From the NCBI GenBank assembly GCA_963805065.1, contig CAWDSS010000010.1, forward strand, positions 407,059-471,058: a stretch of 64,000 nucleotides of DNA, given 5' to 3'. The DNA is from Candidatus Omnitrophota bacterium. Lineage in GTDB: Bacteria; Omnitrophota; Gorgyraeia; Gygaellales; Profunditerraquicolaceae. The position numbers and the translations under genes were made by a program. The first letter of the stretch is position 1, and each line of letters starts with the position of its first letter. Under the pieces are notes generated by a model. It was not told the DNA's origin, did not search any database, and worked only from the letters and a program-made list of their open reading frames with translations. This document shows positions 23,707 through 64,000 of the stretch, in pieces.

Positions 23707-23742
23707 ACCTAGGAGGCCTTAAATTGAGGAAACGCTTTATTT

Positions 23743-32635: not shown

Positions 32636-32742
32636 TTAAAAGTTAAAAGCCAAAAGTAAAAAGAACAAGTAAAAAGTCAAAACTTTTAAATTTTAACTTA
32701 AACTTTTACCTTTTTGCTTTTACCTTTTGACTTTCTATTATA
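32636..32742. repeat. AT-rich heptamer-periodic tract (AAAAGTN units, then their complement), forming a long imperfect dyad
   Basis: aaaagttaaaagccaaaagtaaaaagaacaagtaaaaagtcaaaac...ctttttgcttttaccttttgactttc. Confidence 0.5.
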
Positions 32743-37586: not shown

Positions 37587-37640
37587 GGGGACGTTTCTAT
37601 TTTCCTCTGAACTGGAGACGTTAAAAATAGAAACGTCCCC
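37587..37640. repeat. palindromic intergenic repeat, copy B
   Basis: GGGGACGTTTCTATTTT-cctctgaactggagacgtt-AAAAATAGAAACGTCCCC, between the nrdJ start and the end of the LacI-family gene. Confidence 0.85.
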
Positions 37641-43223: not shown

Positions 43224-44575
43224 TTGTTTTTTACCTTCCCTTTACTCTTGTTATTTAACACCGGGTTCTTCCAGAATTCCCTCAATACATAATACGCCTT
43301 GCGGGGAGTGCGTTTATTAATGCCGTTTTCCAGTTCTTCCGACAGCGCGGCTATCCCGAACCACTCCTCGTTCATATTCATATTATTGGGCGCTTTTATA
43401 TCAAAATAATAACTGCCGTTGGACCAGCCTGCTTCTGTATCATGTATCTTCCAGCCTTCCGGATTATCTTGATTGTGTTTCCACCATTCATCCGTCCATT
43501 CAAAAGTTGTGCCGCCTATGCAGTTACCAACACCAGTTTTAGTGTTATACAAATTTTCGTAAATCTGGCGCCACTGCCACTCAAGGAAAAATGCCTGCAT
43601 GTTCTGGTCTTCTTTTTTTAAATACGCGTCGTACGCATCAGCGCCGAATTCCGATAAGAGAATTGGCTTATCAAAAGTTGCTTTCAGGGAATTAAACAAA
43701 TTCCCGAAGGTTTTCCCCCGGTAAATTATGCAGGCGACTAAATCTACTTGGGGTGCGAATTTATTGGCGAATTCAAGCCCGATTAATTCTCCGTTGCCTA
43801 AGGCAACGGGATGGTTAGGGTCGATTTTATGAATTTCTCCTGCCAGCTCGTTTACATATGAATAGTAAATTTCTGCCTTCATTGCCTTTTGTTTCTGGGG
43901 GTCTGTTTCCTTGTCTATTTCATCTGTTGACCAACGGTTAACCATCCCTAAGCAGGAATAATTGTTTTCATTGCCCAAAATCCAAAGCAATACTCCCGGC
44001 TCATCTTTATAGAGGCTGACCATATTCAACACGTCTTTTTTAACTTTATCCTGAAATGCCTTATCTCCGTAAAATGGGCAGGGATATTCCCAAAACCCCA
44101 GCCAGTTTCCCAAAATAGTGCGTATGCCGTAAATTTCATAAAAATCTTTAATTACTTTTTTTACTGCCTCGGGATTTTCTCCTGGCTGATAAATCCTTAT
44201 CGTGTTTACGCCCATTTCTTTCATTAATTTTCCATCAACCAGCCAGGGCTTATTGGGATCAGACCACCAGTCATATTCATGATTTTGCCCGATGGGGATA
44301 GGGCTGTAACAGACGCCTTTTACAATGTAGGGCTTTTGGTTTACGATTAGTTGGTAATGGCTGTTTTTGAGTTTTTTTATGAAGACGGCAGGCAGAGGCC
44401 TGGAAGCCATGCCTGAAAGGCAGGTTAAAAAGAAAATGGCACAAGGCACAAGGCTCAGGGCACAAAGTAAACCTTTGGCCCTGAACCCTGGATCCTGAAT
44501 CTTGAATCGTTTAATAATTTTATTCGTACTTAATCTCATCCAGATAGAAAGTTGCGCCTTCCGGATTGTTATCAA
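43220..44575 (-). CDS. GH2-like clan GH-A TIM-barrel glycoside hydrolase (WxLGNE acid/base and LSEFG nucleophile-type motifs), secreted
   Basis: 451-aa ORF; VLLWILGNENNY and PILLSEFGADAY. The 5' leader is encoded by heptamer arrays; an alternative start, MASRPLP, lies at about 44410. Confidence 0.55.
   Translation of the reverse strand: MITIRKAQLSIWMRLSTNKIIKRFKIQDPGFRAKGLLCALSLVPCAIFFLTCLSGMASRPLPAVFIKKLKNSHYQLIVNQKPYIVKGVCYSPIPIGQNHEYDWWSDPNKPWLVDGKLMKEMGVNTIRIYQPGENPEAVKKVIKDFYEIYGIRTILGNWLGFWEYPCPFYGDKAFQDKVKKDVLNMVSLYKDEPGVLLWILGNENNYSCLGMVNRWSTDEIDKETDPQKQKAMKAEIYYSYVNELAGEIHKIDPNHPVALGNGELIGLEFANKFAPQVDLVACIIYRGKTFGNLFNSLKATFDKPILLSEFGADAYDAYLKKEDQNMQAFFLEWQWRQIYENLYNTKTGVGNCIGGTTFEWTDEWWKHNQDNPEGWKIHDTEAGWSNGSYYFDIKAPNNMNMNEEWFGIAALSEELENGINKRTPRKAYYVLREFWKNPVLNNKSKGKVKNK
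44438..44506. repeat. two adjacent heptanucleotide tandem arrays, (GGCACAA)x4 and (CCTGAAT-like)x4
   Basis: ggcacaaggcacaaggctcagggcacaa ... ccctgaaccctggatcctgaatcttgaa. Confidence 0.75.
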
Positions 44576-45736: not shown

Positions 45737-45924
45737 TAAAAAGTTAAAACTAAAAAGTAAAAACTCAAAACTGTAACTCAAAACTTAAAAGTTTTGAGCT
45801 TTACGTTGCAGTTTTGCGTTTTGCATTTTACGTTTTGCGTTTTTTACCGCCTCCTTTCTACTTTCCTACTTTTTTACTTTTTGCTTTTAAATTTTTTTAC
45901 TTTTTGCTTTTTACTTTTTACTTC
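45737..45924. repeat. long AT-rich heptamer-periodic tract: A-rich half (AAAAGTA-like units), then T-rich half (GTTTTGC/TACTTTT units)
   Basis: aaaaagttaaaactaaaaagtaaaaactcaaaactg...gttttgcgttttgcattttacgttttgcg...tactttttgcttttaaatttttttactttttgctttttactttttact. Confidence 0.6.
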
Positions 45925-48371
45925 CAGAGTTTCTTATACAAGTAATAAGACTTGCGTAATTGCCTTAAAAACGGGCTTAATTTTCCGTCACCCTGGCCGC
46001 AAATTCCCAGCCACTCCTCATGCATATAACCGTCGGGAAACGGCCCGGTAAATAATCCTTTTGTATCATGCGTGTATGGCTCATAAGCCTTCCACCATTC
46101 ATCCAGCCATTCAAACGCCACTGCGCCGATAGAGTTTCCCGCACCGGTGTGAAATGCCATGTTGTTTTCAATATCCTCCCAGGAGCCCTGATGATACACT
46201 GCCTGGGCTTCTTCAGCCTCATCCAGGGAACTGCCTTCTGCGTATGCAGGGCAGCCATACTCTGTAATAAACACCGGCACATCTGCTTCTTCTCTTACGC
46301 TTTTCCAAAGCCTGCCAAAACCATACTCTCCCCGATAGGCGTTAGTGCCGAAAATATCAATATCAGGCGCATCTTTGCCGAATTTATCCAGGAATAATAT
46401 GTCGCCGCTACAAATTGCTACAGGATGTTCGGGGTCAATTTCTTTAATGTGGTTTGCCACTTCATTTGCGAATTTAAAAAATGCGTCGGGTTCCTTATTG
46501 GCATTACAGGCATAGCCGTAAACATTTTCATTACCCAGGAGCCAGAATAATATGTAGGGTTCATCTTTAAATTCCAGAACCATGTTAGTCACTGACTCCA
46601 TCATGTTTTTCTTTTGCTCTTCATTAGTATAATCTGTGCCCGGGCTCCAGGGTGCGCCTGAACCCAAAGCATATTTACCCAGGAAATCGCCCATAATTAC
46701 CATTATCCCGTAATTATCGTAAAGGTCGCGCATAATTTCCTTATGCATTTTATAAGGGTGGTGATAAATCCTTAGGGCATTTACACCCATTTCTTTCATT
46801 AGCCTGAAATCTCCTACTGCGGGTTCGTCTTTATCCTGCAGATTATTTCTGTTTTTATCCACGAAAGCATCATACGGACCGTCTGCCTTGCCGTTCTTAT
46901 TAAAATCATCCTCCATCCAGTTAGTCATTGTCCCGTTATCCGGAGATTCCCCTACTTTTGTGGGAGCATAAGTCAGGCCCTTGATGACAAACGGCTTATT
47001 ATTAACCAGCAATTCCCAGTCGCCGGTTTCATATTGCACTAAATGCACCCTGCCTTTACCGCGCCTCTTTTTTATGCTCAAAAGGTCTTTAGAGGGTTTT
47101 GGCTTGAATTTATCAAGAATACCGATTTTCACAAACCTGCCCGGGTTAGTAATTGTTATATCATTAGAAACGTCATTATCATAACCATTGATTATTCGGA
47201 TATCCGCATCTACTAATTTGTATCCCAACTGCGGATTCTTATGCAGTAAATAATTTATCTTGGCAATTGCTGCTTGGCCAACATACCAGGGCGTATGCCA
47301 ATAAGTCCAGCCGTAACTCCCCGGGTAATGCACTACAATTGCATAATAACATTTAATCGCATGTTTAATTAGGCCGGATTTTTCCAAAAACAAGGCGGTA
47401 TAAAATAATTTTACTCCCTCTGGCTCAGGCGCATTAGCCCATTTTAAAAACCCTGCTTCCAAATCAGGGGAATGTACAAAATCCCAGTGCGAGCCTTCCA
47501 GCCGCTTTTGTTTCATGGCTGTTTTAAATTCAGGATCCCAGCGCACAGAGCTGGAATTGGGATAAATCCCCTCGCCTACCGCCTGAATCAGGCCTTCCTG
47601 ATCGGTAACCACATATTTATAATCCTTAGTCCCTACGTTTTCAAACTTTCCGTATTTCCCATAATCTACAACATCTTCCTTGCCGGGATCATAGAGGACT
47701 ATTTTTGTGGGCAGCTGGCTTACTTTTATTTTTACTGTTTCTTCAGGCATTGTGCCCGGGCAGGGCGCAGGCAATTTTTCATTGGGATTTAATTTAAGTA
47801 TACTTTCTCTGGCAGCCCTGGCAACAGACCAAAACCAGCCTCTAGGGTCCCAGGCTTGCGCAAAACAATATTTTTCCACCACTACTTTAAAGGCCTTAAT
47901 GGACTCTTCTTTCTTTCCCTGATCCCTGTAAGATTCGCCTTGAATAAAATGCGCTGTGGCAACGTCATTTAATTCTCCCACAGCTTCAATATCCGGCCTG
48001 TTCTTAGGCAGGGATTTTAATGACGCCTGTTCTTTCTCTGCTTGAGGAGTATACAAATCTATTAACTGCTGGGTGTATTTGAAGGTTTCTTCTATGTTCT
48101 TTTTTCCATGGGCATTCCAGGATTTAACGATAAGCTCGCCGGATGTAGGTTTGTCTTGAGCGAATAAGTAGCGACATGTACTAAAACAAAAAATAAGCGA
48201 TAAACAAATAATACATAGGTCGATAGTCGATAGTCGATAGTCGATAGTTTTGAAAGAAAAGGGGACGTTTCTATTTTTAAATAAATAACATAACGTAGTA
48301 AAAATAGAAACGTCCCCTTTTCTTTTAGACCATAGACCCTTAGATTTATTTTTTCTATTTATTTTTTTCAT
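45918..48371 (-). CDS. large secreted GH2-like clan GH-A glycoside hydrolase (N-terminal extra domains plus a C-terminal TIM barrel paralogous to 43220..44575)
   Basis: 817-aa ORF; ILFWLLGNENVYGY and VPVFITEYGCPAY; signal-peptide h-region IDLCIICLSLIFCFSTCRYLFA|QDKP. The leader reads through palindromic repeat D and (GTCGATA)x4. Confidence 0.55.
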   Translation of the reverse strand: MKKINRKNKSKGLWSKRKGDVSIFTTLCYLFKNRNVPFSFKTIDYRLSTIDLCIICLSLIFCFSTCRYLFAQDKPTSGELIVKSWNAHGKKNIEETFKYTQQLIDLYTPQAEKEQASLKSLPKNRPDIEAVGELNDVATAHFIQGESYRDQGKKEESIKAFKVVVEKYCFAQAWDPRGWFWSVARAARESILKLNPNEKLPAPCPGTMPEETVKIKVSQLPTKIVLYDPGKEDVVDYGKYGKFENVGTKDYKYVVTDQEGLIQAVGEGIYPNSSSVRWDPEFKTAMKQKRLEGSHWDFVHSPDLEAGFLKWANAPEPEGVKLFYTALFLEKSGLIKHAIKCYYAIVVHYPGSYGWTYWHTPWYVGQAAIAKINYLLHKNPQLGYKLVDADIRIINGYDNDVSNDITITNPGRFVKIGILDKFKPKPSKDLLSIKKRRGKGRVHLVQYETGDWELLVNNKPFVIKGLTYAPTKVGESPDNGTMTNWMEDDFNKNGKADGPYDAFVDKNRNNLQDKDEPAVGDFRLMKEMGVNALRIYHHPYKMHKEIMRDLYDNYGIMVIMGDFLGKYALGSGAPWSPGTDYTNEEQKKNMMESVTNMVLEFKDEPYILFWLLGNENVYGYACNANKEPDAFFKFANEVANHIKEIDPEHPVAICSGDILFLDKFGKDAPDIDIFGTNAYRGEYGFGRLWKSVREEADVPVFITEYGCPAYAEGSSLDEAEEAQAVYHQGSWEDIENNMAFHTGAGNSIGAVAFEWLDEWWKAYEPYTHDTKGLFTGPFPDGYMHEEWLGICGQGDGKLSPFLRQLRKSYYLYKKLWK
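48219..48246. repeat. heptanucleotide tandem array (GTCGATA)x4, perfect
   Basis: gtcgatagtcgatagtcgatagtcgata. Confidence 0.85.
48257..48322. repeat. palindromic repeat, copy D (extended-arm variant AAAAGGGGACGTTTCTATTTTT / AAAAATAGAAACGTCCCCTTTTC)
   Basis: Loop aaataaataacataacgtagt. Confidence 0.85.
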
Positions 48372-48377
48372 TGAACT

Positions 48378-49226
48378 CTATCCTACAATTGCTCCCTGGG
48401 TTACGCCTTTCACAATATATTTCTGCATCAGCACGTAAACTATTATTATAGGTAAGGCAGTTATGGTTAAGCCTGCCATTAACAACGGATAATTCGTGAC
48501 AAATTCTCCCTGGAATGTCTGAAGCGCAACCTGAAGCGGCATATATTGCTTTGAATCAAAAATTATCAAAGCCAGGATATATTCATTCCACACGTTCAGT
48601 GCGTTAAATACAACCACTACTGCTAACACCGGCTTTGCCAAAGGTAAAGCCACATGCCACCATATTCCTAATTTTGAACAACCATCTATCCTGGCTGCGT
48701 CTTCCAGCTCTTTGGGCAATTTATCAAAAAATGTCTTTAATAAAAATATGCTGGTAGACAACCCCACGTTAATCATGCATAAAATATAGCCTATGGGAGT
48801 ATTTCTCAGATGCAGTTTATTCAATAATACGTACAGGGCAACAAAACTTCCCGGTATAGGAATCATCATCGCTACCATAAACATGAGAAATAAAAAATTC
48901 CTGCCGGGAAAACGAAAGCGTGAAAATGCATACGCTGCCATGGAAGAAATAATCACTATGCCCACTACCACTGATACGGTATATAAAATACTGTTCAGGA
49001 AATACCTGTCAAACCCGCCCTGAATCCAGGCCTGGTAATAATTTGAAATATGGAATGTTTTTGGGATTAGCGAGTTGTCTTTAAATATGGTTTCCTGCGT
49101 CTTGAGGCTGGAAGAAACCATCCACAAAAGAGGAAAGATACAGCTGATTGAGACAGTGATGAGGAAAATGTGTACCAGCGCATTTACGGTTACTCTTTTG
49201 ATTTTATAATAAGCAGTCGTCTTCAT
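48378..49226 (-). CDS. carbohydrate ABC transporter permease (MalG/UgpE-like)
   Basis: 282 aa; EAA loop region LEDAARIDGCSKLGIWWHVALPLAKP. Confidence 0.8.
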   Translation of the reverse strand: MKTTAYYKIKRVTVNALVHIFLITVSISCIFPLLWMVSSSLKTQETIFKDNSLIPKTFHISNYYQAWIQGGFDRYFLNSILYTVSVVVGIVIISSMAAYAFSRFRFPGRNFLFLMFMVAMMIPIPGSFVALYVLLNKLHLRNTPIGYILCMINVGLSTSIFLLKTFFDKLPKELEDAARIDGCSKLGIWWHVALPLAKPVLAVVVVFNALNVWNEYILALIIFDSKQYMPLQVALQTFQGEFVTNYPLLMAGLTITALPIIIVYVLMQKYIVKGVTQGAIVG

Positions 49227-49232
49227 ATGTTT

Positions 49233-50159
49233 CTATTGCATTTGCCGCGCTCTTTTGGAGAAGCGGTATTGGATAAACGATATTATTACTAATACCACGC
49301 CGAAAGTTATGCCTTGTGCGCAGGCATAGCCGAAACGCGATGAACCGCGCATGGAAGCCAATATTCTTAATACAGGAACTGAAGTATAGCCTGCCAACTC
49401 TCCGCCTACCAATCCGATAATCAAAACAAACGCCTGCATGGTTCCCAAAACCGTAAGTATTGCCACCAACACCGCAACCGGTATCATCAAGGGAACTGTG
49501 ACCCTGGTAAAAGATTGCCAGGCATTTGCCCCGTCCACTCGTGCTGCCTCATATAGCTCGCGCGGAATTGTTTGTAATCCTGCCAAAAATATCAAGAATC
49601 CCCAGCCAAAGCCTTTCCAGGAATGCACCAATGCCACAGTTGTAAGGGCAGTCTTGGGATCTGAAAGCCAGTGATGCACTAATTGCGGCAGGCCCACACT
49701 AACCAGCATACGGTTAATAATATTAGCACCATCAACATCGTTGATAATAAAACGCCAGGCCATGCCGACTACTATTTCCGATAAAACAGGCGGAATGAAA
49801 AATATCATCCTGTAAAAATTCTTCGCACGTATTTCTCTGTCGCAAGCCCAAGCCAGAAGAAAAGCCAGCGCGTTCTGGAAAGTCAGGGCGATTAGTGTAA
49901 TGTAACCTGCGTTCCGCATGGCTTGCCACCAGCTGGGGTCCTGTAAAATTATTTCTTTGAAATTGTTAAAACCGACAAATATCTTGGTGGGCAATATGCC
50001 GTCCCAGTCATAAAGGCCCAATTGGAACACCCAGATAAAGGGTATGATATAGAAAATTACAAATATTGCTACGGCGGGGAGAACAAATAAATAGTTTTCT
50101 AAAGTGGATTTTATCCGCATATAAAACTTTATTAATTGTAACTTAATGTCAAATGACAA
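49233..50159 (-). CDS. carbohydrate ABC transporter permease (MalF/UgpA-like)
   Basis: 308 aa; LYEAARVDGANAWQSFTRVTVPLM. Confidence 0.8.
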   Translation of the reverse strand: MSFDIKLQLIKFYMRIKSTLENYLFVLPAVAIFVIFYIIPFIWVFQLGLYDWDGILPTKIFVGFNNFKEIILQDPSWWQAMRNAGYITLIALTFQNALAFLLAWACDREIRAKNFYRMIFFIPPVLSEIVVGMAWRFIINDVDGANIINRMLVSVGLPQLVHHWLSDPKTALTTVALVHSWKGFGWGFLIFLAGLQTIPRELYEAARVDGANAWQSFTRVTVPLMIPVAVLVAILTVLGTMQAFVLIIGLVGGELAGYTSVPVLRILASMRGSSRFGYACAQGITFGVVLVIISFIQYRFSKRARQMQ

Positions 50160-50168
50160 AACTCAAAG

Positions 50169-50232
50169 AAAAGGGGACGTTTCTATTTTTAACGTTTCCT
50201 AATCAGAAGAAAAATAGAAACGTCCCCTTTTC
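50169..50232. repeat. palindromic repeat, copy E (extended-arm variant), itself nested inside a 12-bp outer inverted repeat
   Basis: Loop aacgtttcctaatcagaag; outer CAAATGACAAAA (50143-54) / TTTTGTCATTTG (50279-90). Confidence 0.85.
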
Positions 50233-50295
50233 TTTGGTTGTCGAATTACTTAGATTAAGGGATTTATTTTGACGTTGGGATTTTGTCATTTGTTA

Positions 50296-51594
50296 TTATC
50301 TTCTTTTGGCTAATTCTCTTTCTTTTATTGCCTGCGTGAGGCTAGCTACCTCTTCGGGGGTCTTTTCTCCGAGGATAATGGATTGTATGCCTTTGTCCCA
50401 CGCTTCTATGACTGCAGAAAATTCTGAAACGCCCCAAATATTCGGGTGCGTTGAATATTCCATGCCGTTGGCAAATTCCGATAAAATATCGGATATTTTA
50501 GTTGCGCTGTTTTTATTAGCCGGCAGGTTATTGGTTGTTTCAGCCAAAAATGCCTGCTGGTTTGTGTCGGTAAACCACTCTAAGAATTTAACTGCCTCTT
50601 CCTTGTTTTTAGAACGCGCGTTAACCATAAATGAGGAGCCCGCACCTCCCCAAATCGCCATAGGATATTTATCCGATTGCTTGGGGGGAAGAAACGCTGC
50701 GTACTCTAAATTGGGATTCATGCCTTTGTAAACATTAACGCACCATGAGCCATTAAAGGCAAACACTGCTTTTTCATTGGCAAACAGCTGCTCTGCGGTC
50801 TTATTGACCATAATCAACAATTCTCCCGAAGCCAGCCCTGCATCCCTCATATTCTTAAAGATGGTTAAAACCTGAATCCAGTCAGGGTCAGTATAAGGAA
50901 CTTCGCCTCTTATTGTCGCTAAAACTTTATCCTTGCCCATAATATTAAAGGCGTAATTATTGGCAAAGCAGTCAATCATCCACAGCTCTCCCCATCCGGA
51001 AACAAAACCCTGCAGATTAGCTTCCTTGATTTTTTTAGCCATATCCAGGAATTCCTGCAGGGTAACAGGAGGTTTTTTGGGATCAAGGCCAAGAGTTTTA
51101 AATAGATTCTTGTTATAGACCATTTGAATAGTCATCACGTCTATCGGTACACCGTAAATGCCCGGCTTTACGTTGTAACTATTTCCTTCAATAAATTCAT
51201 TTACTGCTAAGGCCTTGGCAAAGAAAGAGTTTTTCCAAGAGCCGCTATTTTCTTCCATAAAAGGGGTTAATTCCAGAATATGCCCGGCTTTGATAAAAGA
51301 GGCGAAATCTCTTTTTTCGCCTAAAATTCCAAAAATATCCGGGAGGTTTGTTCCCTGGGCAGCTGCGCGCACTTTCTGAGTGTAGGCATCAGAAGGGGCA
51401 TATAATTCAAAATTTACCTTTACTCCGGCCTTTGCTTCATACCTCTTTGCCAACTCCTGGAATGCCGGCTCTCTGTCTGTCATCCAGTGCCAGACAGTTA
51501 TAGTTGGTTTTGTTGCTTTCTGGCCGGAAGAACAGCCAATAATAGAAAATATAAGGACAAATAGCGCTAAACCCCCAATGCGTAACTTACCCAT
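50296..51594 (-). CDS. extracellular solute-binding lipoprotein, family 1 (sugar ABC transporter SBP)
   Basis: 432 aa; lipoprotein signal LALFVLIFSIIGC|SSG; SBP_bac_1-like sequence. Confidence 0.8.
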   Translation of the reverse strand: MGKLRIGGLALFVLIFSIIGCSSGQKATKPTITVWHWMTDREPAFQELAKRYEAKAGVKVNFELYAPSDAYTQKVRAAAQGTNLPDIFGILGEKRDFASFIKAGHILELTPFMEENSGSWKNSFFAKALAVNEFIEGNSYNVKPGIYGVPIDVMTIQMVYNKNLFKTLGLDPKKPPVTLQEFLDMAKKIKEANLQGFVSGWGELWMIDCFANNYAFNIMGKDKVLATIRGEVPYTDPDWIQVLTIFKNMRDAGLASGELLIMVNKTAEQLFANEKAVFAFNGSWCVNVYKGMNPNLEYAAFLPPKQSDKYPMAIWGGAGSSFMVNARSKNKEEAVKFLEWFTDTNQQAFLAETTNNLPANKNSATKISDILSEFANGMEYSTHPNIWGVSEFSAVIEAWDKGIQSIILGEKTPEEVASLTQAIKERELAKRR

Positions 51595-51726
51595 GTTTCT
51601 TTTGCTCCTTTCCCTAAAGATTTGAACTTAAAGTATACCACCTAAACACCGCCAAATCAAGGTTGTCAAATTAAATTGAATAAATCTAACATAAGTTTAA
51701 AGGCGGGTCAAGATTTTTATTGGGCT

Positions 51727-52431
51727 TTATATCGCTCTTAACACGCGAGATAAACCCATAAGATCGGCCTTTTCCAGGTTAACGCCTACCTTGTACTTAT
51801 TGGTATCCACCATTTTTGACCAGACTACTTCACCTCTGGTGTACAGCGGCTCGCCCTTATCAGGAATTTCAAGCCACATTTCCAAAGCAGTCCTGGGGTG
51901 TAATTGCTCATTTGCCGAGATACCAATACCTTTAGCGCTGACATCTTCAATTGAAGCCTGGCTCTCTTTATTTTCTCTAAGGTTTATAAACTTCACGGGA
52001 AAAGTCGCATTAAACCTGTCAAAAATCCTGCGGTCTTGAAATTTTTCTTCTTCCATTGTCTCACCCCCTTCAGGTATTGTGTCTTTCCACCATTGGTTAT
52101 TTACCAGACGAGGAAAATTGCTGCGCATAAACTTATAGATTGTTTCCTTATCCCCGTCCTTAATCTTATTGAAGCAAACGCCATGGATGTTGACGCTGCC
52201 TATTGTTTTATGCCAGGCTACCCACGCTTCTATATTTATAGCAGAAACGTCAGATAAAACAATAGTTAATTTCACAAACTCATCTTTCGGTAACTTCATC
52301 TGCAAAGCAAGGTTACAACCCAAGAAACTGATATCGCCCACAGTGCAGTCCGCGCAATTTTCAGCTCCCTGAAGCTTCACCTTAAGCTCTTTGTTTATTT
52401 TCCACCTCGCACAACGCCTTCGCCCTGTCAT
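51727..52431 (-). CDS. tandem PilZ-domain protein (two c-di-GMP-binding PilZ modules)
   Basis: 234 aa; module 1 RRRCAR ... DISFLG; module 2 RRIFDR ... DVSAKG (RxxxR plus D-x-S-x-x-G signatures); the ATG overlaps the stop of the giant ORF (ATGA). Confidence 0.65.
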
Positions 52432-55400
52432 CTCACTCCTTTCTGTGGCTGGTAATAGGTTAAGTTTATATTAGGTAAAACAGCGGCATTAGCATGCAAG
52501 CCGCTATTGACAATCGGCAATAAAGTTCCATCTGTGAAATGCGAATTGTCAGCTGTGAATTGAATTGGTGAACTAGAATATTTCTCTTCCCAAACTCGAT
52601 CAACAAACTGAACTAGCCTGTTTATCGCATTCATATGCGAATAAAGGTATTGGTTTAACTTTGAAAATTCAACTTTATGCCGTGGATCAATAAACAACTG
52701 AGCTACTAATTCTGCGGCATCCTGACCAAATTCGTTTCTTGTAGAATCGTATGTGTATATAATATATTCTAAAATTCTGTAGGTATCTTCAGCCATAAGT
52801 TGCTTTGCAAAACCTAAAAGTTGTCGATCCAACGTGCCCTTGAAATGGCCATAAACTTGATAGATCCATATCTTGTCAAGCTGAATCAAATTTGTGAAAG
52901 AAATTGCTCCTGCTGTAGCCTGCGGCAATTCAGCCAAACTCAAAAACTCATTATATAATTCCTCCGGAACGAATCCCAAATTAACAATAGCAATATTAGT
53001 ACCGGAAAGTAAAGCAGGGCTATATTCTCCTTTGATTAAATCAATATAACGAATTCCGTATTTCTTCACTGTTTCTCGTAACGAATTAGATTCCGACCAA
53101 TCGTTAGACCTTCCGAAAGTAAAGAGAGTTACGTCTCTTTCTTTAAGATGAACTGCACTCTCTTTGGCTTGCGCAATAATCTGCAGGAACTGAACAAGAT
53201 GCTTCCAGGTAAATTCTTGGTAATAGGTCGTCCACAATGAACTAGCTATGCTATTTTTATCAAATGGCAGGGTTTTTAGCAATTGTCTCATCTTTAACTT
53301 TTCTAGGAAACACGCTTTGGCTTGTTGATTATCTTGAGATTTATCATTTTGCTCTTTTTTAACAAGCTCGGGGTTAAAGTATAAGCCAACGCCATTGCTA
53401 AAAAGGCCAGCTTCCAAATAAAAAGTCTCTGCATCCCTTGCCCCTCTAAGAGGAGAATGATAATCATCAACAATAATCTTTAAACGCCCTCCTAATCCAA
53501 AAGGAATATCATGATTAAACGAGACGATAAGATCAACCGGTGAAATTTGTTGCCGTTCCTTTTCGCTTGGATATTGAATAAACAAAAGACCGTCATTCTC
53601 AAAATAATCCCCAAAAGTCCTCTCCCGTCCAAAAAGAATCCTTTGAGCCTGACAAAACCCCCAATAGCTTAAATAGATTTGAATCGCTGCCTGCGGATAA
53701 AATTGTTTTATTGTCCGAGCAAGATTAAGGACAACGCCCGCATCTCCGTACCCTTGATCTTCCTCCGTAGACGGTAACGCAACGAGCCTTACAGACCTAA
53801 TTTCATCTTTGGCGACACTCCGAACCATTTTTACTTTTTTACCCTTCGCTCCCTTTTTTATCACCGGCGAGGCGGCGCGTTTTTCGGTTCTAGGTGTTAG
53901 GTTTTTGGTTATTGAGCTAGAACCAACAGACACCGGCGAAGAGACAAAACTTATACTCTGTTTGGCTACCTGGAAAGCTTTTTCCACATCAAGAAAAGCC
54001 GAGCCTTTATCGTCAATTTCAATTTCAAAACTATTTGAAAACACATCGAGAAGTTGCTCTATTTCTCCAGAAGTTAACTTCTCTGTAAGAAGATACGAAA
54101 AAACTTCACTTATATATTCGCCAAAAGCTGAAACAAAAACTCTATGGTTGTCAGTTGAAACAGTATCTTTATAAATAATAAGCTTATACCAGCGCTGGGC
54201 GATATACCTTAAAAGCTCTAAGTTTGAGACGTATTGCTCTAAATCTTCCTGTGCGAATGCCCAGGCAAGAGGAACGCCGTAATATAGAGTTTTACAGGGT
54301 GGCATATTTTCTGAAAGAAACTGCTCGCCGAATTTCAGCGTCGTTACAAAAACGTCGTCTTTTTTAACAAACAATTTTTTCAACATGGGTATCAATACTG
54401 TTTCTGCAAAATCAGTGAGAGTTTTTGATTTATTTAAATGGGCGATGAAGTCCTCTGTCGCCCGGTCAACACTTGAAAACAACCATTCCTTTTTCTCAAG
54501 GCGCTCTTGGACCTTCGGATCATAAAGTTTCCAAAGACGCACATAACTGTTAACGCGTCCATTAACCCTATAGTCTTCATAGAGCTCTAAAACCCGGGCA
54601 ATCGGCTCGCAGAAACCGTTAGGGTTAACGCTATCATTTAGGAGTTGTGTAAAAAACTTATCAATCTGCTTTCTATAAGCTAAGAGGATTCCGCAAAATA
54701 TTTCAAGCGGCTCAAAATTTTCACCAAGTTTCTCTAAGACATAGCTGGCATTATAATAGCCCTCAGGCGCAACCTCTAGGCCATCCAAATCAATGACAGA
54801 CGCATAATAGTAGCCATTTTTATGTAAAGCATAAGCATTATCTTCATGCGGATCGCGTAAAAATAACCCTTTGTTAAAGACGCGCCATAAATGAAGATAC
54901 ATGGCTACTTTCAGGCTGTTTTTCTCGAAAGAATTTAGATCCTCTGTTTCTTTGAGGTATTGCTCTGTCATAATGATGCGTTCTTTTTGAGTCCCGGGCT
55001 CATAGATAGTATAAGTCATTCCATACCAAGGATGATAATCTAAATCATATTTATGAAGCCTGTCGACCACGCAATCCATGAGGAAAGTAAAGTTAGAATT
55101 ATATTCATAGCCATCCAGCGTCTTTGTAACATACTCCCGGACGACCTTAAAAACAATGGGATACTGCCGTCTGCTTTCACCCTCTCCATACTCCAGAGTC
55201 ATTCTAAAGAGGCGCTTATAGTTACCACTGTCGTCAATGAGTTTAACCTCTTTGATTTCTATATCTTGGGGCCTAGCATGAATCTTAAAATTGATTCTAA
55301 ACGTATCAATCTTAAAATCAGGCTCTTCAGCTACCGCATAAAGCAAAGCCACATCCCTGAGATATCCTTTGCCATAACGCTCTAAGTTCTCATGTAGGGC

Positions 55401-58400
55401 TTCAAAAAATGCTTTCTGCTCTCTAGGAGAAAGGCCTTCCTCAAAAAATTCCCCCTGCTCTTTAAAGGTTCGCGTTAACAATCTTTGTTCGATCTCTTCG
55501 ACATTGTCAACATTCATGCTATAGAATTCTTTCGGATGGCCTGGTTTACAAATAGCCTTGGCGAATGCATTCAAATTGGAATCTTTAAAATTAAATTTAA
55601 CCGGCGAGCTAACCGTGTCTTCTGCACCATTTTTGCTGGTTCGGAATGCCGCCGCGAATCTTCCCAAGGAAAATTGATCACCAAAAAGATTACCGCCTGC
55701 TCTGTATCTGCGATAAATATCCAATACTTCGGCTGTCGAATAACAAAATCCGCTTGGATTAATAGCATCAGAAATCATTTTTTCAAAGAACTTCTCATAT
55801 TGATGGCCGTAAGCTAAAAGGATTCCGTAGAATACTTCAAGAGGCTCGAAATTATCCCCAAGTTTTTCAAGAACATGACTTGCATCAAAATCTGATTCGT
55901 AGCCCACTTCCAAACCGTCTAAATCTATCATCAAAGGATAATATTGGCCTTCCTTTTCAATAATCATCACATTCTCATTATGGGGAACACGAACAAATAG
56001 CCATCCTTCAAAAATCCTCCAGAAAATAAGATAGAGCGACACCTTTAAACTGTTCATCTCGAGCGCTCCTAAATCCTGAGTCTCATCCAAATATTGTTCT
56101 GTTAAAATCAAGCGTTCACGACCAACCAAAGGATCATAAAGAACATGGGTTGTCCCATATTTAGCATGAAAAGCGGGATTATATTTTTGAATCTTATCAA
56201 TAATGCAATTTACGACGTTCACAAATTCAAAATTATAGGGGTATCCGTTAAGAGTTCTTAATTTTTCGTCTCTAACAACCTTGAGAACTATAGGGCATAA
56301 TGCACCGCTTATTCTATCTTCCAAAATTAACTTAAAAACCCTTTTGAAAGTGCCGCCATCATTTAAGAAACTCAGTTCTCTCACGGCGATATCTTTGGGG
56401 GCCGCTATAATATCAGAAAACTTTTCTGAGCCATCTTTCTTAAAACCGCCTTTTTGGATCATGGAATAAATCAAGGCTACATCTTTAATTAAACTCTCGC
56501 CGCAACATTGTGCACGCCCTGTTTTTAGAACCTCCATAAAAACTTTTTGCTCTCCAAAGGAAAGCAGGCTTTCCCTAAATTCTTCATTAACCAAAGCTTG
56601 AATATCAGCAAGGAATCTATCCGGCTGAAGATTAATTGTTTCTTTAGCATGAGTAGTTATACAAAAAGATTTTGCAAAATCATTCATTGCCTGATCTTCA
56701 AAATTATATTCTATCCCTTTGTAGTTAGAATTTTTGTTGAAAGATAAACCGATTAGATTGTTTTTGACCGGCGAGCTGGATTCGGCTCCTTCATTTTTAG
56801 GCATCGGTCCCTCGGCTTGCAGCCTCGGGACTCCCTCGCCTCTCATTGGGCTCGTGCTCGGTCGCGAGGCGGCGCCTTCGTTAGTTCTCAGTTTCCGGTT
56901 TCTAGTTTTCAGATTATGATTCTCAACTAACAACGGACAACTGACAACAGACAACTGCAAAGCCGGCGAGGCGGCGTGGGGATTTTTTCCTGCCGGAGAG
57001 CTGCCAGATTTAGTATCTTCAGCCCACGCTTCTTGAACTTTCTTGATTCCCGAGAGGTCTTCTAATTTTTCCTTAAGCCTTGAGAGTTCTATTTCCTTAT
57101 CTACTTCTAACAACAAACCGTCAAGCTTCTGGATTATCCCAAACAAATCAACTTCAGGAAAAACCATTTCTTTTAAAATTGAAAGCAATTTTTTTCTTCG
57201 TAATTGCTTATCCGGTAATTCAGCTCCCGCTGCCGGTGAGCTAGAGAACAGCTGCCTGTTTATCTTAAGGCGTTCTGCAAGCTCTCTGGCCATCTGCCAA
57301 CGCCATTCCTGCCTATTTTGAGTCCCTTTATAGAAGAAACCTGTTATAGTAGTCCCTCTTTCTTTCTCGCTATCCATCGATAACAAAATCTCATAGCGCG
57401 GAATACATAAAATTTTAGCTATACCAACATATTTAGAAACAATCACCACGCTTTCTCTGACATGTTCTATGACAGAAACATCGGAATATTTACCTACGCT
57501 ACGAGTCAATCCCTCTCCTGCCCATCCCCCAATTCCGTTTTCCCTGTGCCATTCAACAGCCCTTTCGATAGGGATAAGCCGTCTTCTCTTATCACGGAAG
57601 CCCAATCCTGCATCATGAATGGATATTAAAACAAAATCATCAACCTCGCAGCGCACGATTAAACCCAGAGATCTCTTTGCGTGCTGGTTAGTGTTTTCCA
57701 CAGAGCACGCAGTAAATTCATTTTCATCGCCCCTTATCTTTCCCTTAGTGATAACCGGGATTGTTTTTGTTAAATTAAAATAATCATCCCGGAGGCTACA
57801 TTTGTAATCCAAGCCATCTATTTTACGGCTACTCATGGCAGCCCCAATAATCCATGTATCCATTCCTTCAAGCGCCTTCAATTCGTTTTTGACCACAATA
57901 AACTCTTTCAAATCTTTTTTGGGATTCAAAGCCATCCTCATAAAATTTCTTGCTTTTGGCACAAAAGAAAACACCCTCTCGTCTATCACCGATGAGCTTG
58001 CTTTAAGCGTAGTCGAAGGGAATAGTTGGACCTTTGGCGAGGCGGCGCATTCAGGCGAAGCAGGGTTTTTATCGAGAGGGGAACAGGATTGACTAGTTGT
58101 TTCTTTTTTCTCAAGTGAATTCACGCCAACAAACGAGTAGTACATATGCTCAGCATCCTCAATAGGCGTTTCAAGGATTCTTTCTTTCAAAGATGCGATA
58201 TACCTTGCGTCATCTTTTCTTTGCAGAATTTCTGCGGCTTCTTGTGCTTTATTTTCTCTGCCTAATTCGATGCTTTTAGCAAAAGTATATAAAATATCTT
58301 TTCCGTTTTTACCAAGCTTTCTTTCGATAAGATCCAGCCTCCCGTTAATAAAAGCCTCCCACAGCACTGGTAATCCTACGTGCTGTGATAATAAATCTAT

Positions 58401-61400
58401 AGCCTCTATAAGCCAGGCATGCCTGTAACGGGTTGAGAATTCCCTGCATTGGTTAAGTAAACTCAAAACCAGATAATCCACTAACGCAAGTTCAAAAAAC
58501 CTGAATTCCGATTCGCAAAAACCATCGAATAAGAGGCAAAGCGCTTCTCTCATTAGATACGGCTCTAAATCTAGCCCCTCAAATGAACTGCCATCGTTAT
58601 TCCAGCGAGAAGCAAGAATACGAGCTTGATAAGGTACTCGTATCACTATGCCATTAGACAAATGGCTCACAAACAAAACAATATGAGACAAGTCAATCGT
58701 GGAATTAAACGCCTGAGAAAGCCTATGAGAAACATTCCTTACGCTTTGTTTTTGAGCTTCATTTGGCTCTGTAATGTGACGTTGTGCCACTCTAAAGTAG
58801 GAAGCAAAAATGACCTTTTCCACATAAAATGCCATAATAAAGGCATTTTCTCTTTCGGCTTTATAATTATTTCTTGTTTTGCTGCGTTTTTCAAACCCCT
58901 TGATAAAATTCAAAATTGAAAACATATCTCTTTTGCGCAGATGACGAAACGCCTCTATGAGACCTGCTTTTGCAGCCTCAGGAGCCTCAACTTTATTTAT
59001 AATTTGTCGTATCCCCGTGCGATATAAATAATCTATATACCTTGCATCAGGAGATAAGTCATTGATATTGTAAGCGTTACCCGCAACAACGATACAACCA
59101 TCTCCGAAAGGAATATCAGCCCAGTCTGCCTCATCATAGCGAACAGTAAAAGAGAAAATGGTTTCCTTATCAAAGGTCATTCTTGCAAAATAGCGCTTAT
59201 CTTTCAGGTCATCGGGAACTAACCTCTTCATTACTACGGAATCCTGCCACTTCTCTTTAAATAAATTACTGTGGAGCCTTACATTAAGGTCTTGCTCACC
59301 AGGAATATTGGCAAAAATGAAGTTTTCTTCACCCACTAAATTAGCCTGTACTGTTCCCGAATAGGGGAAAAATCTTTTTTCCTCCAACAGAGCTAATAAA
59401 TCCAGGTAATCTCCTAGTTTCTGATTTTGAATAGCGGTTATCACTCTCTCAAAGTATGAGAAATCAGGAACCTTCTCAAGGAAAGTATTAAATCTAAATC
59501 CGCAAAGGTGCTCATATAAACCTTTACTTATTAATATGCCCATAATGTTATGTGCAGCACGAAGAGTTTTTACATTACCCTCAGCTATACGCATCAAATC
59601 AGGCAATATATAAACTTCATAATTATCAACGTTAGGGAACCGTTTGTAAAAATCAGCGATTAAATCTGGAACAGCATCTAAGATAGAAAGATTATAAGCA
59701 TATCTAAGCCATTCCCATCTTCGATCATAAAATCTATCGAGGTCGCGCTCAAGAAGGAGTAAACGATAAATTCTTTCTACAGCTTCTTCTTTATAAGGCC
59801 TTAATTGCTCTGGGCAATTATCATTAAATAATTGTTCGGCGGTTTCCCATTGCTTCCACTCTCTCTTCATTGATTTTAAGACAAGGCGGATAGAAGATAT
59901 TTCTTTATCTTTATTGAGTTTATCTACCCATATATGATTTACGCCTAAAGACTCTCTCTGCGGATTAACAGAAGTCAAAAGTTGACTGAAAAACCAGATG
60001 GCTTCAGGATGATATTTATCCTTCATATGAGGAATCGCCCATTCTATCATGATATCAATAAATGGTTTTTTGTTGATGTCGCCCAATATAGAATCGAAAG
60101 TGGGCTTTTCTTCATATGCATCATGATCATTGGTAAGAACGAGAGATTCAAGAGTAATAGTAAGGTTTATATTTCCTGGTTTGTTATGCGAGATTAATTC
60201 TTGGGCATCGAACTTTCTAGCCTCTTTGGTACTGAATTCGGCTGCTCCTCCTTGTGCGATTATTGAATTCACATTAAACCGCTCAGGATACTTCTTGTAT
60301 TGAGCAGTTAAGCCATATCGTTTTAGAATAGAGGTTAACTCAGCGGTACGATTAAGTGGAGGGAGCTTTATGTTATAGTTAATTTTCTCCGGAAAATATT
60401 TTTCTAGTATGCTTACCAAAACAGGCAAACTTCTGCCCCGTTTTTTAAATACTCCTTCGTGGTTAGAATCAAGAGAAATCACTAATATCACGTTAGAAGC
60501 AATCTGAGCCATAAAATGCTCAAGCTCTGTTTCTTCTGTAGGTAGAAAGAACCCACTGGTAACCACGTAAACTTTATCTATATTAGCGGCGATAAAATTA
60601 ACTATTTTAAGAAAATCAGGATACAACGTAGGCTCGCCTCCCAGCAACCGGACACTTGAAAATCCCCGTATGTCTTCGCTAATAAGTTTTTTGAGTTTCT
60701 CACAAGGAAAAATAGCACCCGGATTATGCTTCATAGCTTTTTCTGCACAGCAAAATGGACAGCCCAAACCACACCTGAAAGTCATTATAAGATTAATGTG
60801 ATCTTCAAAATCCAAGAAAGTGCGCAAAAGATCATATGTTATTGCAAATCGATATTCAGAATGTAATATCCTGTCTAGGATATCTTGCATTGTCTCAAAG
60901 CGCTTCCTTTCTTTATCCTCCATCACCGGCGAGGCGGCGCGGGGATTATTTTGCACTGGAGAACCGGATTCTTCAAAAACCTTACATAAGTTTATGATTT
61001 CGGTTGACCCCCAAAAATCAACCTTTTCAATTTCAATATTCGGTGATCCTAACTTTTCATTAACATATTTCTCGGGGTTGGCAAAAACTCCGGGCTTAGA
61101 AGGATCATGGCTTTTTAGAATAACAGCCAAACATCCATCGGGCGTAATACAAAGGCTTGAGTAGAACGGCTCTTGTTCTCTTTCAAAACGACTTCGCTCT
61201 AAAAGACCTAACTTTAATGCCATGGAAAACGCGCGTCCTTCATAAAAGATACCATGGATATTCTGCTTTAAATTGATCTCAAATTCTTCTCCCAAGGGAA
61301 CCCAAACCAACTCTCTTGTCAAGTTATTGAACGACTCTTTCAATGCATTACCACGTACACTAAAAGGCTGCAGTTCTCCTAATTCCCAAATAATCAGGTG

Positions 61401-63956
61401 GTCTTGCATTGAATCATTTTTGTAAGATAAAGGTAAGAATTGAATTATATCACGATATCTACTGTAGTATGACACTAACAGCTTTCTAAAATCTTCTGAA
61501 TCAACCCCACCATGTCTCATGACTGCTTGTATAACATCCGGATAAAACAAATGAAAACTAAAATATGGCCATTGTGAAGAATTTTCCACAGGATTAAGGG
61601 ATTGAAAGACTTTTTCAAGAATATCCCTATTATTCTGATTAATAAGTTTCTTGGCATTAATAACCAAATCTTTTCTCACTGGAAATCTAGGCAATAACTG
61701 AGAGATAATATAAGCTAAATCACGACGATTTAAAGCATCTGAATCAAGTCTAGTTCCTATTTTTAATGCAGGCCATTTATTAGTTATCGAAAATATTAGT
61801 AATCTGAATAATTTAGGTGACATCTGTTTTACGGGTCCCATAGCATCAAACAGACAATGTTCACATGCATCATTACAACCCCATGTGAACAAAATTCCTA
61901 TCTCTTTGTGGTTTTTGAGCCATAATTCAACAATCATTTGAAATTTTTTTGTAAAGCAGGGAAATGAATTGTTTATGAAATTTTCAATCGTAGGCGAGGC
62001 GGCGCGGGGTTTTTCTCCCACTGGCGAGCTGGATCGAGTCTCAAGATCACCATAAAGATCATAAATAAGCCTCTTTTCAGCATCGCCTAATATTTCATAG
62101 GCGGTTGCAGCCTCTTTAAATATTTTTTCGGCTTCTTTGTTGTTAGGGTTACGATCAGGATGAAACTTCAAAGCTATGGCTCGATATGCCTTTTTGATCT
62201 CTTCCCGCGTAGCATCAGGTTTAACCCCAAGAGTCTTGTAAAACTTAAGCGACTTATTATAACCATTGACGCTGTTAAGAGAATTGTAAGACAATGCATT
62301 GATATACCGCGGGAGCTCCGAATAGCTATCGTCTGTAAGAATATATCCTATTTCTCTTAAGTAAATAACAATTGAATAAGCGGTATCATAAATATTCTTT
62401 CCTTGAGGTTGAATAATCCAAGTCTTGAGGATCATAGGGTTATCGTGGCAGACAAAAGCGACCTCTATAAACCTCTCTCCTGGCCTGCCAGGACCTTCAT
62501 TTTTCACGCGTATATCAAGGACGCCTTCTTGGTAAGGTATTTGGACAATATCTGCTTCTGGGCGGCCAATACTGTTTGTATCAGAGGCCCGAACTACACT
62601 CTTTTCCAAGCCGCCCGAGCTGCTCAAGCCTCCTTTCAATACATTCTCCATCCTATCGCATGATTTTGTTGGTTCAGCTTCCTGATGCATTTGATCAAGC
62701 AGCGCCAAATCATAAGACTCCACAGCTTCAGAGTTGAATACCAGTAATCTCTTCCCGTCTACAGAGAAGAAAGGCTTATCTTTTTCCCCCAGCTTAAGTG
62801 CAATTTTTTTGCCATTGATAGTAGTACAAATCAAATTAATGACTTTTGTCAAACCGTCATATATATGCAGATAGCTCCCACACGCAGAATAATAAGTATT
62901 GAGCAATGCGCCACGCGTATTCAAAGGAACGATTTTTGCGTTATCCACATGATAGATGGCACAGCTAGGATCAACATCCCAGTTTATTTTGTTAATGTCA
63001 TAACAAAGAAGTGTACTGTCAAGTGTTGGTGATATAGAAAATTGATAGAGATTGGGGGCGATAAAAGTCCTTTCTTTTGTTTTGAAATTATACACTTCTG
63101 CTGAACCACACAAACTGATAAATAGCGAATCTGGAATAGCTATAAAATTAGCAAAACTCGTGCCTTGGGGGATAAGAAATATTTTCCTAGTTTCAAACTC
63201 ATAAATTACTTTCTCTTTATTGTCCAAGCGCAAGATGGCAAATTTTTCATCTTTGGGAAAAACATGAATAAACGGCAATCTCCCCGGCTGCACTTGGGAT
63301 AAATCAACTTCAAGGCCTGTCTTTAGATCAAACAGGCTGCTATTATAATCTTCTTTAAACATTACAATGGCGTATCCATCTTGCCCTGAAATATGGACAT
63401 GAGACACTTGACCTTCGAAATTTATATTTAAAACTTCTCTTTTTTCGATATCGATTATTTGCACGGTGTCATTAGGGAAATAAACAGGTATCAAACTACC
63501 GCTTCTTGAAAATGTACCAAACATACTGGCTCCCTTATGCAATCCCTTAATTTCTAAAACCCTTCCCGATTCTATATTGATTATTTCCGGTGAAAACAGT
63601 TTGCCGCGGTAGTCGATCGCCAGATACATATCCTTTGGCGAAAAATTAGCGCTCAAAACATCTGTTTTTAACGATAGCTCAACGATCTTTCCAGATGCAA
63701 CTTCATACAGCTTCTCATCAACAAAAGCAAACTTTCCTTTCCTAGATATGAAATTACTATGTGCATAGTGATAGTGATCCATATTATATGCATTGAATCC
63801 CGGAAGGCGCATTCCTTGTGTCTCAAGAGGAGAACTACTAAGCCTCGGCGAGGCGGCGCGGTTAAAATCGGTCGATAGTCCATAGTCTATAGGCGATAGT
63901 GAAAGTCCCGTGTCCTGACCATTGACCATAGACCATTGACCATAGACTGATTTCAC
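52428..63956 (-). CDS. giant multidomain protein (3842 aa or more; the ORF remains open upstream of the GTG start and continues past the window edge)
   Basis: Uninterrupted 11.5-kb ORF; domains are listed as separate features below. Confidence 0.8.
54657..55364 (-). other. giant protein: atypical protein-kinase-like module 2 (internal duplicate of module 1)
   Basis: PIVFKVVRE ... MTEQYL ... LRDPHEDN ... VIDLDGLEV (IDLD at 54783..54794); DPHxxN resembles the catalytic loops of ABC1/UbiB- and APH-type kinases. Confidence 0.5.
55782..56504 (-). other. giant protein: atypical protein-kinase-like module 1
   Basis: PIVLKVVRD ... LTEQYL ... VRVPHNEN ... MIDLDGLEV (IDLD at about 55917..55928). Confidence 0.45.
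56925..56959. repeat. heptanucleotide tandem array (CAACTAA CAACGGA CAACTGA CAACAGA CAACTGC) inside the giant ORF
   Basis: Encodes ...[13 protein letters not shown]... within a low-complexity linker. Confidence 0.7.
57387..57689 (-). other. giant protein: GHKL/histidine-kinase-like ATPase region
   Basis: [12 protein letters not shown] (DxGxG, about 57597..57626) ... [10 protein letters not shown] (G2-like); extent approximate. Confidence 0.4.
60087..60809 (-). other. giant protein: radical-SAM domain 2
   Basis: [18 protein letters not shown] (CxxxCxxC at 60750..60773) and [15 protein letters not shown] (GGEP at 60630..60641). Confidence 0.65.
61257..61904 (-). other. giant protein: radical-SAM-like domain 1
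   Basis: [15 protein letters not shown] (CxxxCxxC at about 61854..61877); extent approximate. Confidence 0.5.
62052..62246 (-). other. giant protein: DnaJ J-domain
   Basis: [62 protein letters not shown], with the HPD tripeptide. Confidence 0.8.
62397..63779 (-). other. giant protein: beta-propeller-like repeat region (WD40/PD40-like)
   Basis: Repeating ~40-aa units with (I/V)xxxD and YD/FD strand motifs; extent approximate. Confidence 0.35.
63883..63950. repeat. heptanucleotide tandem arrays (GTCGATA/GTCCATA/GTCTATA ... GACCATT GACCATA x2) inside the 5' end of the giant ORF
   Basis: gtcgatagtccatagtctataggcgatag...gaccattgaccatagaccattgaccatagactgat encodes [31 protein letters not shown]. 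Confidence 0.75.
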
Positions 63957-64000
63957 CGGAGAGGCGGCGCCTTCGTTAGCTTTCGGCCCAAGACGTACAG

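Follow-up and report, generated by a model that had tools for sequence, protein, structure and literature searches.

Giant genes have been described in the Omnitrophota and, in the preprint by West-Roberts et al. 2023 (10.1101/2023.11.21.568195), the set comprises genes of >90 kb; in the wider literature, the size limit for giant proteins is >10-20 kaa (thousands of amino acids, aa). According to that preprint, the so-called Archaeovorins present as N-terminal hallmarks a transmembrane region, a C39/S8 peptidase and SecA-like domains; most Omnitrophota giant genes are followed downstream by pilZ and then by genes for binding-protein-dependent carbohydrate import and glycosyl hydrolases; and the points at which the giant proteins are cleaved are unknown, a situation that hinders structure predictions. 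In a 2026 preprint (10.64898/2026.06.07.730766), a class of giant proteins containing many unrelated enzymes was named 'multi-enzyme metabolic cluster'. In this work we analyzed a stretch of 64,000 nucleotides (nt) of a Candidatus Omnitrophota bacterium (contig CAWDSS010000010.1), hereafter the window, whose last part (52428..64000, minus strand) is occupied by the C-terminal 3,856 codons of a giant open reading frame (ORF), an open frame without stop codon that runs past the window edge. A short GC-rich sequence encoding Ala-Ala-Ser-Pro (AASP) recurs in this ORF. On balance, we regard this repeat as the cassette-junction (or "punctuation") motif of an Archaeovorin-type giant gene, kept uniform by recombination.

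The gene resembles the Omnitrophota Archaeovorins in several respects. Its ORF would also be giant: in an identical Logan contig the called product has 18,085 aa and is itself cut at the contig end, which makes a gene of at least 54 kb. Both appear to be chains of unrelated enzyme-like domains with poor sequence conservation between genomes, and in both cases the genes directly downstream are pilZ, those of a sugar transporter that depends on a binding protein, and genes for glycosyl hydrolases. In the window, this context consists of PilZ, a solute-binding protein, two ABC permeases and a GH2-like protein (45918..52431, minus strand), and the order pilZ, solute-binding protein, permeases, GH2 recurs in the related loci L044, L045 and L050. 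Considering this pilZ/sugar ABC transporter/GH2 context together with the giant size, we have filed the gene, which the earlier note did not place, as a putative giant gene of Omnitrophota, of either the Archaeovorin or the multi-enzyme type. The Pfam domains present in the visible 3,856 aa are DnaJ and Radical_SAM only; methyltransferases, HEAT, TPR, GGDEF and receiver domains are found in syntenic relatives.

Other described systems share part of this organization. As in viral polyproteins and in the gingipain/adhesin precursors of Porphyromonas gingivalis, complete units are held in one ORF and separated by short, uniform, lineage-specific words; a uniform short word at every functional-unit boundary, the mark of a polyprotein, was found here as well. 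In contrast to polyproteins, there are here dozens of cassettes and the junction is also a DNA breakpoint, whereas cleavage and a cognate protease are only hypothesised. MARTX toxins and polymorphic toxins (CdiA with its VENN motif, Rhs) are similar in that strains exchange cassettes, with a conserved motif at the start of the variable part. However, those toxins contain a single junction, or a small number of linkers that an internal cysteine protease cuts, and their cassettes are toxins with immunity genes, while here the cassettes are housekeeping-like enzymes, every one of them is bracketed, and the window showed no orphan cassettes. A MARTX-like toxin was discarded, given that no Pfam hits to a cysteine protease domain or to glycine-rich repeats were obtained in the visible 3,856 aa. 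Finally, integron arrays (attC, attI) also consist of ordered, independently acquired units with short conserved sites in one orientation, but here a single reading frame runs through the whole array, so that its junctions are translated. An integron-like array was likewise rejected: the window contains no integrase or tyrosine recombinase, and there are no inverted copies of the motif or folded attC-like sites.

A GC-rich 15-mer of the plus strand, GGCGAGGCGGCGCGG, and its variants had been noticed before at eight places of the giant ORF. In the whole window we found 10 matches with up to 3 mismatches against 0.69 expected, a count reached in 0/100 shuffles, and the eight copies of the giant ORF differ from the 15-mer by 0 to 3 mismatches. 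As the coding strand is the minus strand, this 15-mer is the antisense of CCG CGC GCC GCC TCG CC, and the giant ORF carries eight in-frame x-A-A-S-(P/R) copies on that strand. The mismatch search thus confirmed the eight places, and translation returned the eight peptides originally given, including the upstream SSP(V/A) motifs. All on the minus strand, these copies are NEGAASPV (copy 1, 63958..63972, codons GGC GCC GCC TCT CCG); NRAASPR (copy 2, 63847..63861, CGC GCC GCC TCG CCG), after which comes SSSPL; PRAASPT (copy 3, 61993..62007), in a double junction of 51 nt located just past a DnaJ domain; PRAASPV (copy 4, 60928..60942), in a double junction ahead of a radical-SAM cassette; ECAASPK (copy 5, 58036..58050); PHAASPA (copy 6, 56965..56979), again in a double junction; the AASP-like NEGAASRP (copy 7, 56863..56877), with Arg (CGA) in place of Pro; and KRAASPV (copy 8, 53866..53880), ahead of the C-terminal cassette. 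The three 51-nt double junctions (family D2) present the order S-S-P-V/A, two residues, K/N, P, R/H, A-A-S-P, and the form N-E-G-A-A-S is common to two of the AASP copies (family D3).

Within the window, the repeat is confined to the giant ORF. The core 11-mer CGCCGCCTCGC is present in 7 exact copies, all on the minus strand and in a single frame, against 0.03 expected, and is absent from the remaining 52 kb of the window; for GCCGCCTCGCC we counted 6 copies in the visible 11.6 kb of the giant ORF and 0 in the other 52 kb. In the six-frame translation of those 52 kb, AASP appeared in one case, in a 36-codon ORF, and the pattern [S/A][S/A]SP[VILA] is absent from the 21,789 aa of their ORFs of at least 100 aa. 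The codon choice is also strongly skewed. The Ala codons of the AASP copies are GCC in 16/16 cases, against 20% elsewhere in the ORF, and the Ser codons are TCG in 7/8, against 13% elsewhere; given the peptides and the codon usage of the giant gene, the joint probability of this choice is p ~5e-23, in an ORF with a GC content of 39% (about 41% for the window). The match counts and codon statistics rule out chance or low complexity as the source of the repeat, and the lack of copies in the other 52 kb rules out a generic genome repeat. A genome-wide oriented motif (Chi, uptake sequence, KOPS) was also rejected, because the over-representation fails outside the giant ORF, with 0 copies of GCCGCCTCGCC in the other 52 kb.

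AASP is a lineage-specific variant of a wider junction motif, [S/A]-S-S-P-[V/I/L/A], which the earlier note had missed and whose DNA archetype is TCC AGC TCG CCG GTG. Besides the eight AASP copies, the window contains ten copies of [S/G/C/V]-S-S-P-[V/I/L/A], also on the minus strand: SSSPL (63825..63839, residue 54 of the visible ORF), SSSPV (62019..62033, with archetype codons TCC AGC TCG CCA GTG), SGSPV (60954..60968), SCSPL (58074..58088), SSSPA (57231..57245), GSSPA (56991..57005), SSSPV (56766..56780, TCC AGC TCG CCG GTC), which starts the first of two kinase-like cassettes, VSSPV (55599..55613), between these two paralogous cassettes, VSSPV (53931..53945), past a helical module that is kept in other giant proteins, and SSSPI (52563..52577), 45 codons ahead of the stop codon. 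Related giant genes carry 6 to 32 copies each; the word SSSP was found 21 times in protein P0007, against 0.1 expected, and 13 times in P0010, against 0.08 expected. AASP, the form of this lineage and of one relative that is more distant, frequently stands in tandem with the commoner SSSPV form. The junctions of P0005 include two AASPV and one IASPV, and AASP written as GCC GCC TCG CC is present in L044 as in the window, and not in L045 or L046. In L045, residues 6108-6117 (IRSSSPSSSPVKT) are a tandem-duplicated junction motif, possibly the scar of an imprecise exchange between junctions.

Both the peptide and its codons appear constrained. The Ser that precedes Pro is invariant across 84 junctions and is written with TCN as well as AGY codons (AGY in 12/32 in L045), which argues that the amino acid itself is selected. 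The codon TCG precedes Pro in 17/32 motifs of L045, against 8% of background (p 6e-11), and in 14/20 motifs of L046 (p 6e-9). The information content is restricted to about 16 nt, with 0.4 to 1.1 bits at third codon positions, and no conserved DNA or structure was found flanking the motif past about 16 nt; the junction did not match any known RNA family in Rfam, nor any tRNA. Two further candidates were discarded at this point. A long disordered linker does not fit a conservation limited to the pentapeptide with flanks of near-background composition, and internal translation starts past the junctions are not favored by the presence of a Met within 20 residues in 22/84 cases, against 24.4 expected.

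Other lineages use other junction words. In P0001 (L047), KDGG is found 10 times against 0.12 expected, and in this lineage 13/16 of the DGG copies are written GAC GGC GGN. RSE[MVI]R is present in six copies each in P0014 (L048) and P0017 (L049), with freely varying codons, and GLEE is over-represented in P0018, where the word is PAAGLEE. We assume that these words stand between domains in their respective giant multi-enzyme proteins. They bear on the possibility of a nucleic-acid signal, in which GC-rich, less-used codons would slow transcription or translation of this gene of more than 54 kb by a pause of RNA polymerase or ribosome, giving each cassette time to fold ahead of the following one. 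The information carried by synonymous positions of the motif, the preference for less-used codons ending in G or C (GCC, TCG and CCG in the window, GAC GGC in the KDGG lineage) and the location of the motif exactly at domain boundaries would agree with such a signal. Nevertheless, rarer codons exist in the giant ORF (GCG, TCC, CGA), a pause could be produced by different codons and peptides at each junction, codons are not fixed in the RSE[MVI]R lineages, and neither conserved flanking sequence or structure nor an Rfam match was found; we consider this explanation unlikely.

A post-translational modification of the linkers, either phosphorylation at Ser-Pro or O-glycosylation of Ala/Ser/Pro-rich segments, would account for the invariant Ser-Pro pair, and A/S/P-rich sequons serve bacterial O-oligosaccharyltransferases. 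Glycosyltransferase domains are reported to be common in these giant proteins, with none detected in the visible ORF. On the other hand, the KDGG and PAAGLEE lineages have no Ser or Thr at those positions, and a modification explains neither the identity of the codons nor the breakpoints described below; it seems improbable, slightly more so than pausing.

The motif copies separate recognizable domains. The DnaJ domain (residues 586-647 of the visible ORF, 62058..62243, minus strand, E 1.1e-23) ends 9 residues ahead of the junction at residues 656-670. The Radical SAM domain (residues 1071-1182, 60453..60788, minus strand, E 3.7e-12) is in the cassette that starts at AASP copy 4, with the junction at residues 1011-1025. 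Two paralogous kinase-like cassettes (residues 2429-2771 and 2800-3149, 54552..56714, minus strand), 40-49% identical, are each preceded by SSPV; homologues of these cassettes elsewhere are motif-bounded, and some are free-standing genes. In P0007, the last residue of the GGDEF domain is 85 and the next motif begins at 91, the motifs at 1187 and 4823 precede receiver domains that begin at 1201 and 4829, and the number of reported Pfam stretches containing a motif is 0. The repeated module boundary proposed from the window alone is supported, with motifs flanking the DnaJ, radical-SAM and paralogous cassettes and none inside the Pfam envelopes of P0007. In addition, the free-standing protein P0019 (500 aa), whose gene sits among ordinary genes in more than 24 contigs, aligns through its residues 21-500 with residues 491-975 of P0005, between the motifs at 463 and 979. 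P0019 spans nearly one motif-to-motif interval, which indicates that a cassette corresponds to a whole protein. The motif occupies the place that a stop codon, an intergenic spacer and a start codon would otherwise take. These boundaries show the giant gene to be a head-to-tail, in-frame chain of protein-sized cassettes joined by elements of roughly 16 nt.

A comparison with related giant genes allowed us to follow the cassettes between genomes. A HMMER scan with residues 2326-3400 of the visible ORF gave no close relative of the window gene; it returned 22 distant homologues of the kinase-like cassette (24-31% identity), most of them embedded in proteins of 1.2 to 6.9 kaa, and a few homologues that match the helical module adjoining that cassette. 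P0005, P0007 and P0002 each represent the C-terminal part of a giant gene, with pilZ as the next gene downstream. The gene for the solute-binding protein is also downstream in L044 and L045, and the protein of the window shares 74% identity with its L045 counterpart and 61% with the L044 one. Despite these conserved flanks, the window (3.9 kaa) and L045 (6.9 kaa) have no orthologous cassettes in common.

L045 and L046 share six collinear blocks with 53-82% identity, between which there are unrelated stretches of up to 2.4 kaa. The ends of the blocks lie at a mean of 15 aa from the nearest motif, against 98 at random (p < 5e-5), and at the nine similarity boundaries a motif is located at, or within about 20 residues of, each one, exactly there in most of the cases. 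At the DNA level, homology switches at the 15-nt motif in 6/8 of the L045/L046 junction pairs compared. As examples, the identical bases in left flank, motif and right flank were 8/36, 14/15 and 30/36 at one breakpoint, and 33/36, 14/15 and 10/36 at another. Furthermore, a HPr-like cassette is ahead of the kinase-like cassette in L044 and behind it in L045 and L046, the junctions at these permuted cassettes being AASPV in L044 and SSSPV in L045. Between related genomes, the alignments thus show cassettes being inserted, deleted, replaced and reordered at the junction element. That homologues keep domains between linkers as swappable cassettes, which had been put forward as a check, was observed in L045, L046 and L044. 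The suggestion that the junction shuffles cassettes is supported as far as the breakpoints at the motif and the order permuted in a third relative are concerned, while the enzymology is not shown by breakpoints.

From these observations we infer a recombination mechanism at the junctions. The shared GC-rich sequence, always in the same frame, would act as microhomology between junctions and, since the junctions are identical and in the same frame, recombination between any two of them would stay in frame. Repeated exchange between junctions would keep their codons alike by concerted evolution, and older junctions would drift at synonymous sites. The pentapeptide would be at the same time under amino-acid selection, most probably as an exposed hinge or as a protease recognition site between enzymes, and in the latter case the product would be a polyprotein. 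A more general proposal, which we advance with considerable doubt, is that Omnitrophota build and reshuffle giant genes from whole genes by means of a translated, lineage-specific junction code, serving both for in-frame recombination, in a sort of array of translated cassettes, and as the cleavage site of a bacterial polyprotein; in this lineage, AASP would be the currently active code.

It should be noted that several points weigh against a junction kept uniform by recombination. The evidence of breakpoints is a comparison of sequences, in which no exchange event was observed directly, and selection alone, by retaining only indels with their ends between modules, could produce some of the same pattern. 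In L045/L046, four-fold sites are conserved in 78% inside the motif and 81% outside, in a test of low power because both sequences are too similar. The RSE[MVI]R peptide, kept with varying codons, indicates that DNA identity is not required in general. The AASP form of 20 to 23 nt is absent from 185,579 reference genomes and from JGI metagenomes, save single chance GC-rich hits, and no recombinase or transposase was found among the 47 ORFs of the window. Finally, the motif map covers 3,856 codons at the end of the gene, at most a fifth of its length.

An alternative, or complementary, explanation is that the junction word is primarily a protease cleavage site (S-S-S-P|V, A-A-S-P), at which a C39 or S8 peptidase would release the enzymes, the DNA identity being the result of shared ancestry. 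As a full explanation we hold it as a tentative possibility, although a real one. Every cassette boundary carries a uniform short word, as in viral polyproteins; the words SSSP[VILA], KDGG, RSE[MVI]R and PAAGLEE are lineage-specific, as a co-evolving protease would give; the invariant Ser is kept across TCN and AGY codons; and cassettes match complete free-standing proteins. KDGG, moreover, resembles the double-glycine sites of C39 peptidases. Cleavage was also proposed by West-Roberts et al., who call the cleavage points unknown and report C39 or S8 domains near the N-termini of these giant proteins (10.1101/2023.11.21.568195). Against this, neither the visible 3,856 aa nor the reported Pfam hits of P0007 include a peptidase domain, and cleavage alone leaves unexplained both the identical AASP codons across lineages that are 61% identical in the flanking protein and the DNA breakpoints exactly at the motif. 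Since the words differ by lineage and processing by C39 or S8 has been suggested in the literature, a protease site is the most economical reason for the selection of the peptide, which may thus be a site of processing; a hinge or a modification site could also be that reason. Cleavage is compatible with the cassette-junction explanation and does not exclude it.

Another aspect to mention is the sequence that separates some of the motifs. In three places, two motifs bracket 50-95 nt of heptamer tandem arrays. The spacer between AASP copies 1 and 2 (63862..63955, minus strand) contains the heptamers TGACCAT and GTCGATA and a remnant of the left arm of an intergenic hairpin element, and it matches the intergenic array at 48218-48248 (31 nt, 90%, E 1.7e-5). 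The one between copies 6 and 7 (56878..56962, minus strand) consists of the arrays GTTGTCN and GAAACNN (coding strand), and the one from VSSPV to KRAASPV (53881..53930, minus strand; family D4) resembles a heptamer array and shares 73% identity, over 44 nt, with the sequence upstream of AASP copy 7. Intergenic tandem arrays of 7 nt are located at 14366-14394, 32638-32734, 43061-43099, 44438-44508, 45737-45923 and 48219-48248, with units that include TTTTTAC, AAAAGTA, AATGACA and GTCGATA; arrays like the intergenic ones are also found in frame within the giant ORF, where they separate the members of motif pairs. A cyanobacterial origin, hinted at by heptamer repeats, was discarded since no HIP1 sites are present.

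The intergenic arrays often flank a palindromic element of 55 nt, GGGGACGTTTCTATTTTT...AAAAATAGAAACGTCCCC followed by a T-run, whose copies are intergenic and just upstream of gene starts (14283-14337, 37587-37640, 43110-43164, 48261-48317 and 50173-50227). One copy folds at -33.5 kcal/mol (z -8.1), without Rfam match, and the element looks like a family of intrinsic terminators of the REP type. Its left arm, AAAAATGGGGACGTTTCTACTTTTCGC, forms part of the reading frame, as KNGDVSTFR, and immediately precedes an SSSP junction in L045 (16620-16665 and 17772-17817) and in L046 (11178-11223), and the continuation of the translated arm, CGCTCCAGCT, resembles the inner part of the element, CGTCTCCAGTT. 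The junctions may derive from intergenic terminators or recombine with them.

Paired copies could also be understood as target-site duplications of a small mobile element, either a heptamer array or REP-like. Two AASP-AASP pairs and one VSSPV-AASP pair flank the arrays of 50-95 nt, one spacer matches intergenic arrays and keeps the remnant of a hairpin arm, and in L045 and L046 half of the palindromic element lies directly against SSSP junctions. However, such spacers are found at three junctions only, the five intergenic copies of the element have no GC-rich flank, 14 nt is long for a duplication of this type, the flanking copies differ at 2-3 positions, and the insert-free junctions are left without explanation; this possibility is, in our opinion, hardly credible.

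With respect to previous reports, neither a junction motif nor a motif-bounded exchange of cassettes was found by term searches in the two Omnitrophota giant-gene preprints or in Seymour et al. 2023, and the words linker, polyprotein, recombination, mosaic and fusion are absent from 10.1101/2023.11.21.568195 and 10.64898/2026.06.07.730766. A literature search for the junction motif words returned nothing relevant. The gene family is already known, and the junction motif, the motif-bounded cassettes and the breakpoints at the motif are without a description in the literature searched. The motif offers an objective way to cut giant proteins into units for the prediction of structure and function, explicit candidate cleavage sites to be sought in existing proteomic data, and a testable model for the gain, loss and reordering of enzymes in a frame of tens of kilobases that stays unbroken. 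It bears on the origin of the giant genes of Omnitrophota, on their fast divergence and on the cutting of their products.

The remaining genes of the window are housekeeping. All convincing genes of the window (1-64000) are on the minus strand and the GC skew is negative throughout, which is consistent with a single replichore and a strong gene strand bias. The large subunit of a ribonucleotide reductase (34039-37563, minus strand) contains an intein with a LAGLIDADG homing endonuclease, with Intein_splicing and LAGLIDADG_3 hits in the barrel domain. In the region 15421-25937 (minus strand), two complete tandem phosphate-transporter sets were found (PhoU, ABC ATPase(s), two permeases and PBP_like_2), followed by a putative porin. 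Lastly, the start listed for the ORF 45918-48371 (minus strand), at 48371, is upstream of a terminator-like hairpin and of a perfect (TATCGAC)x4 array, and this GH2-like protein with a signal peptide probably has its true start further downstream, around 48200.

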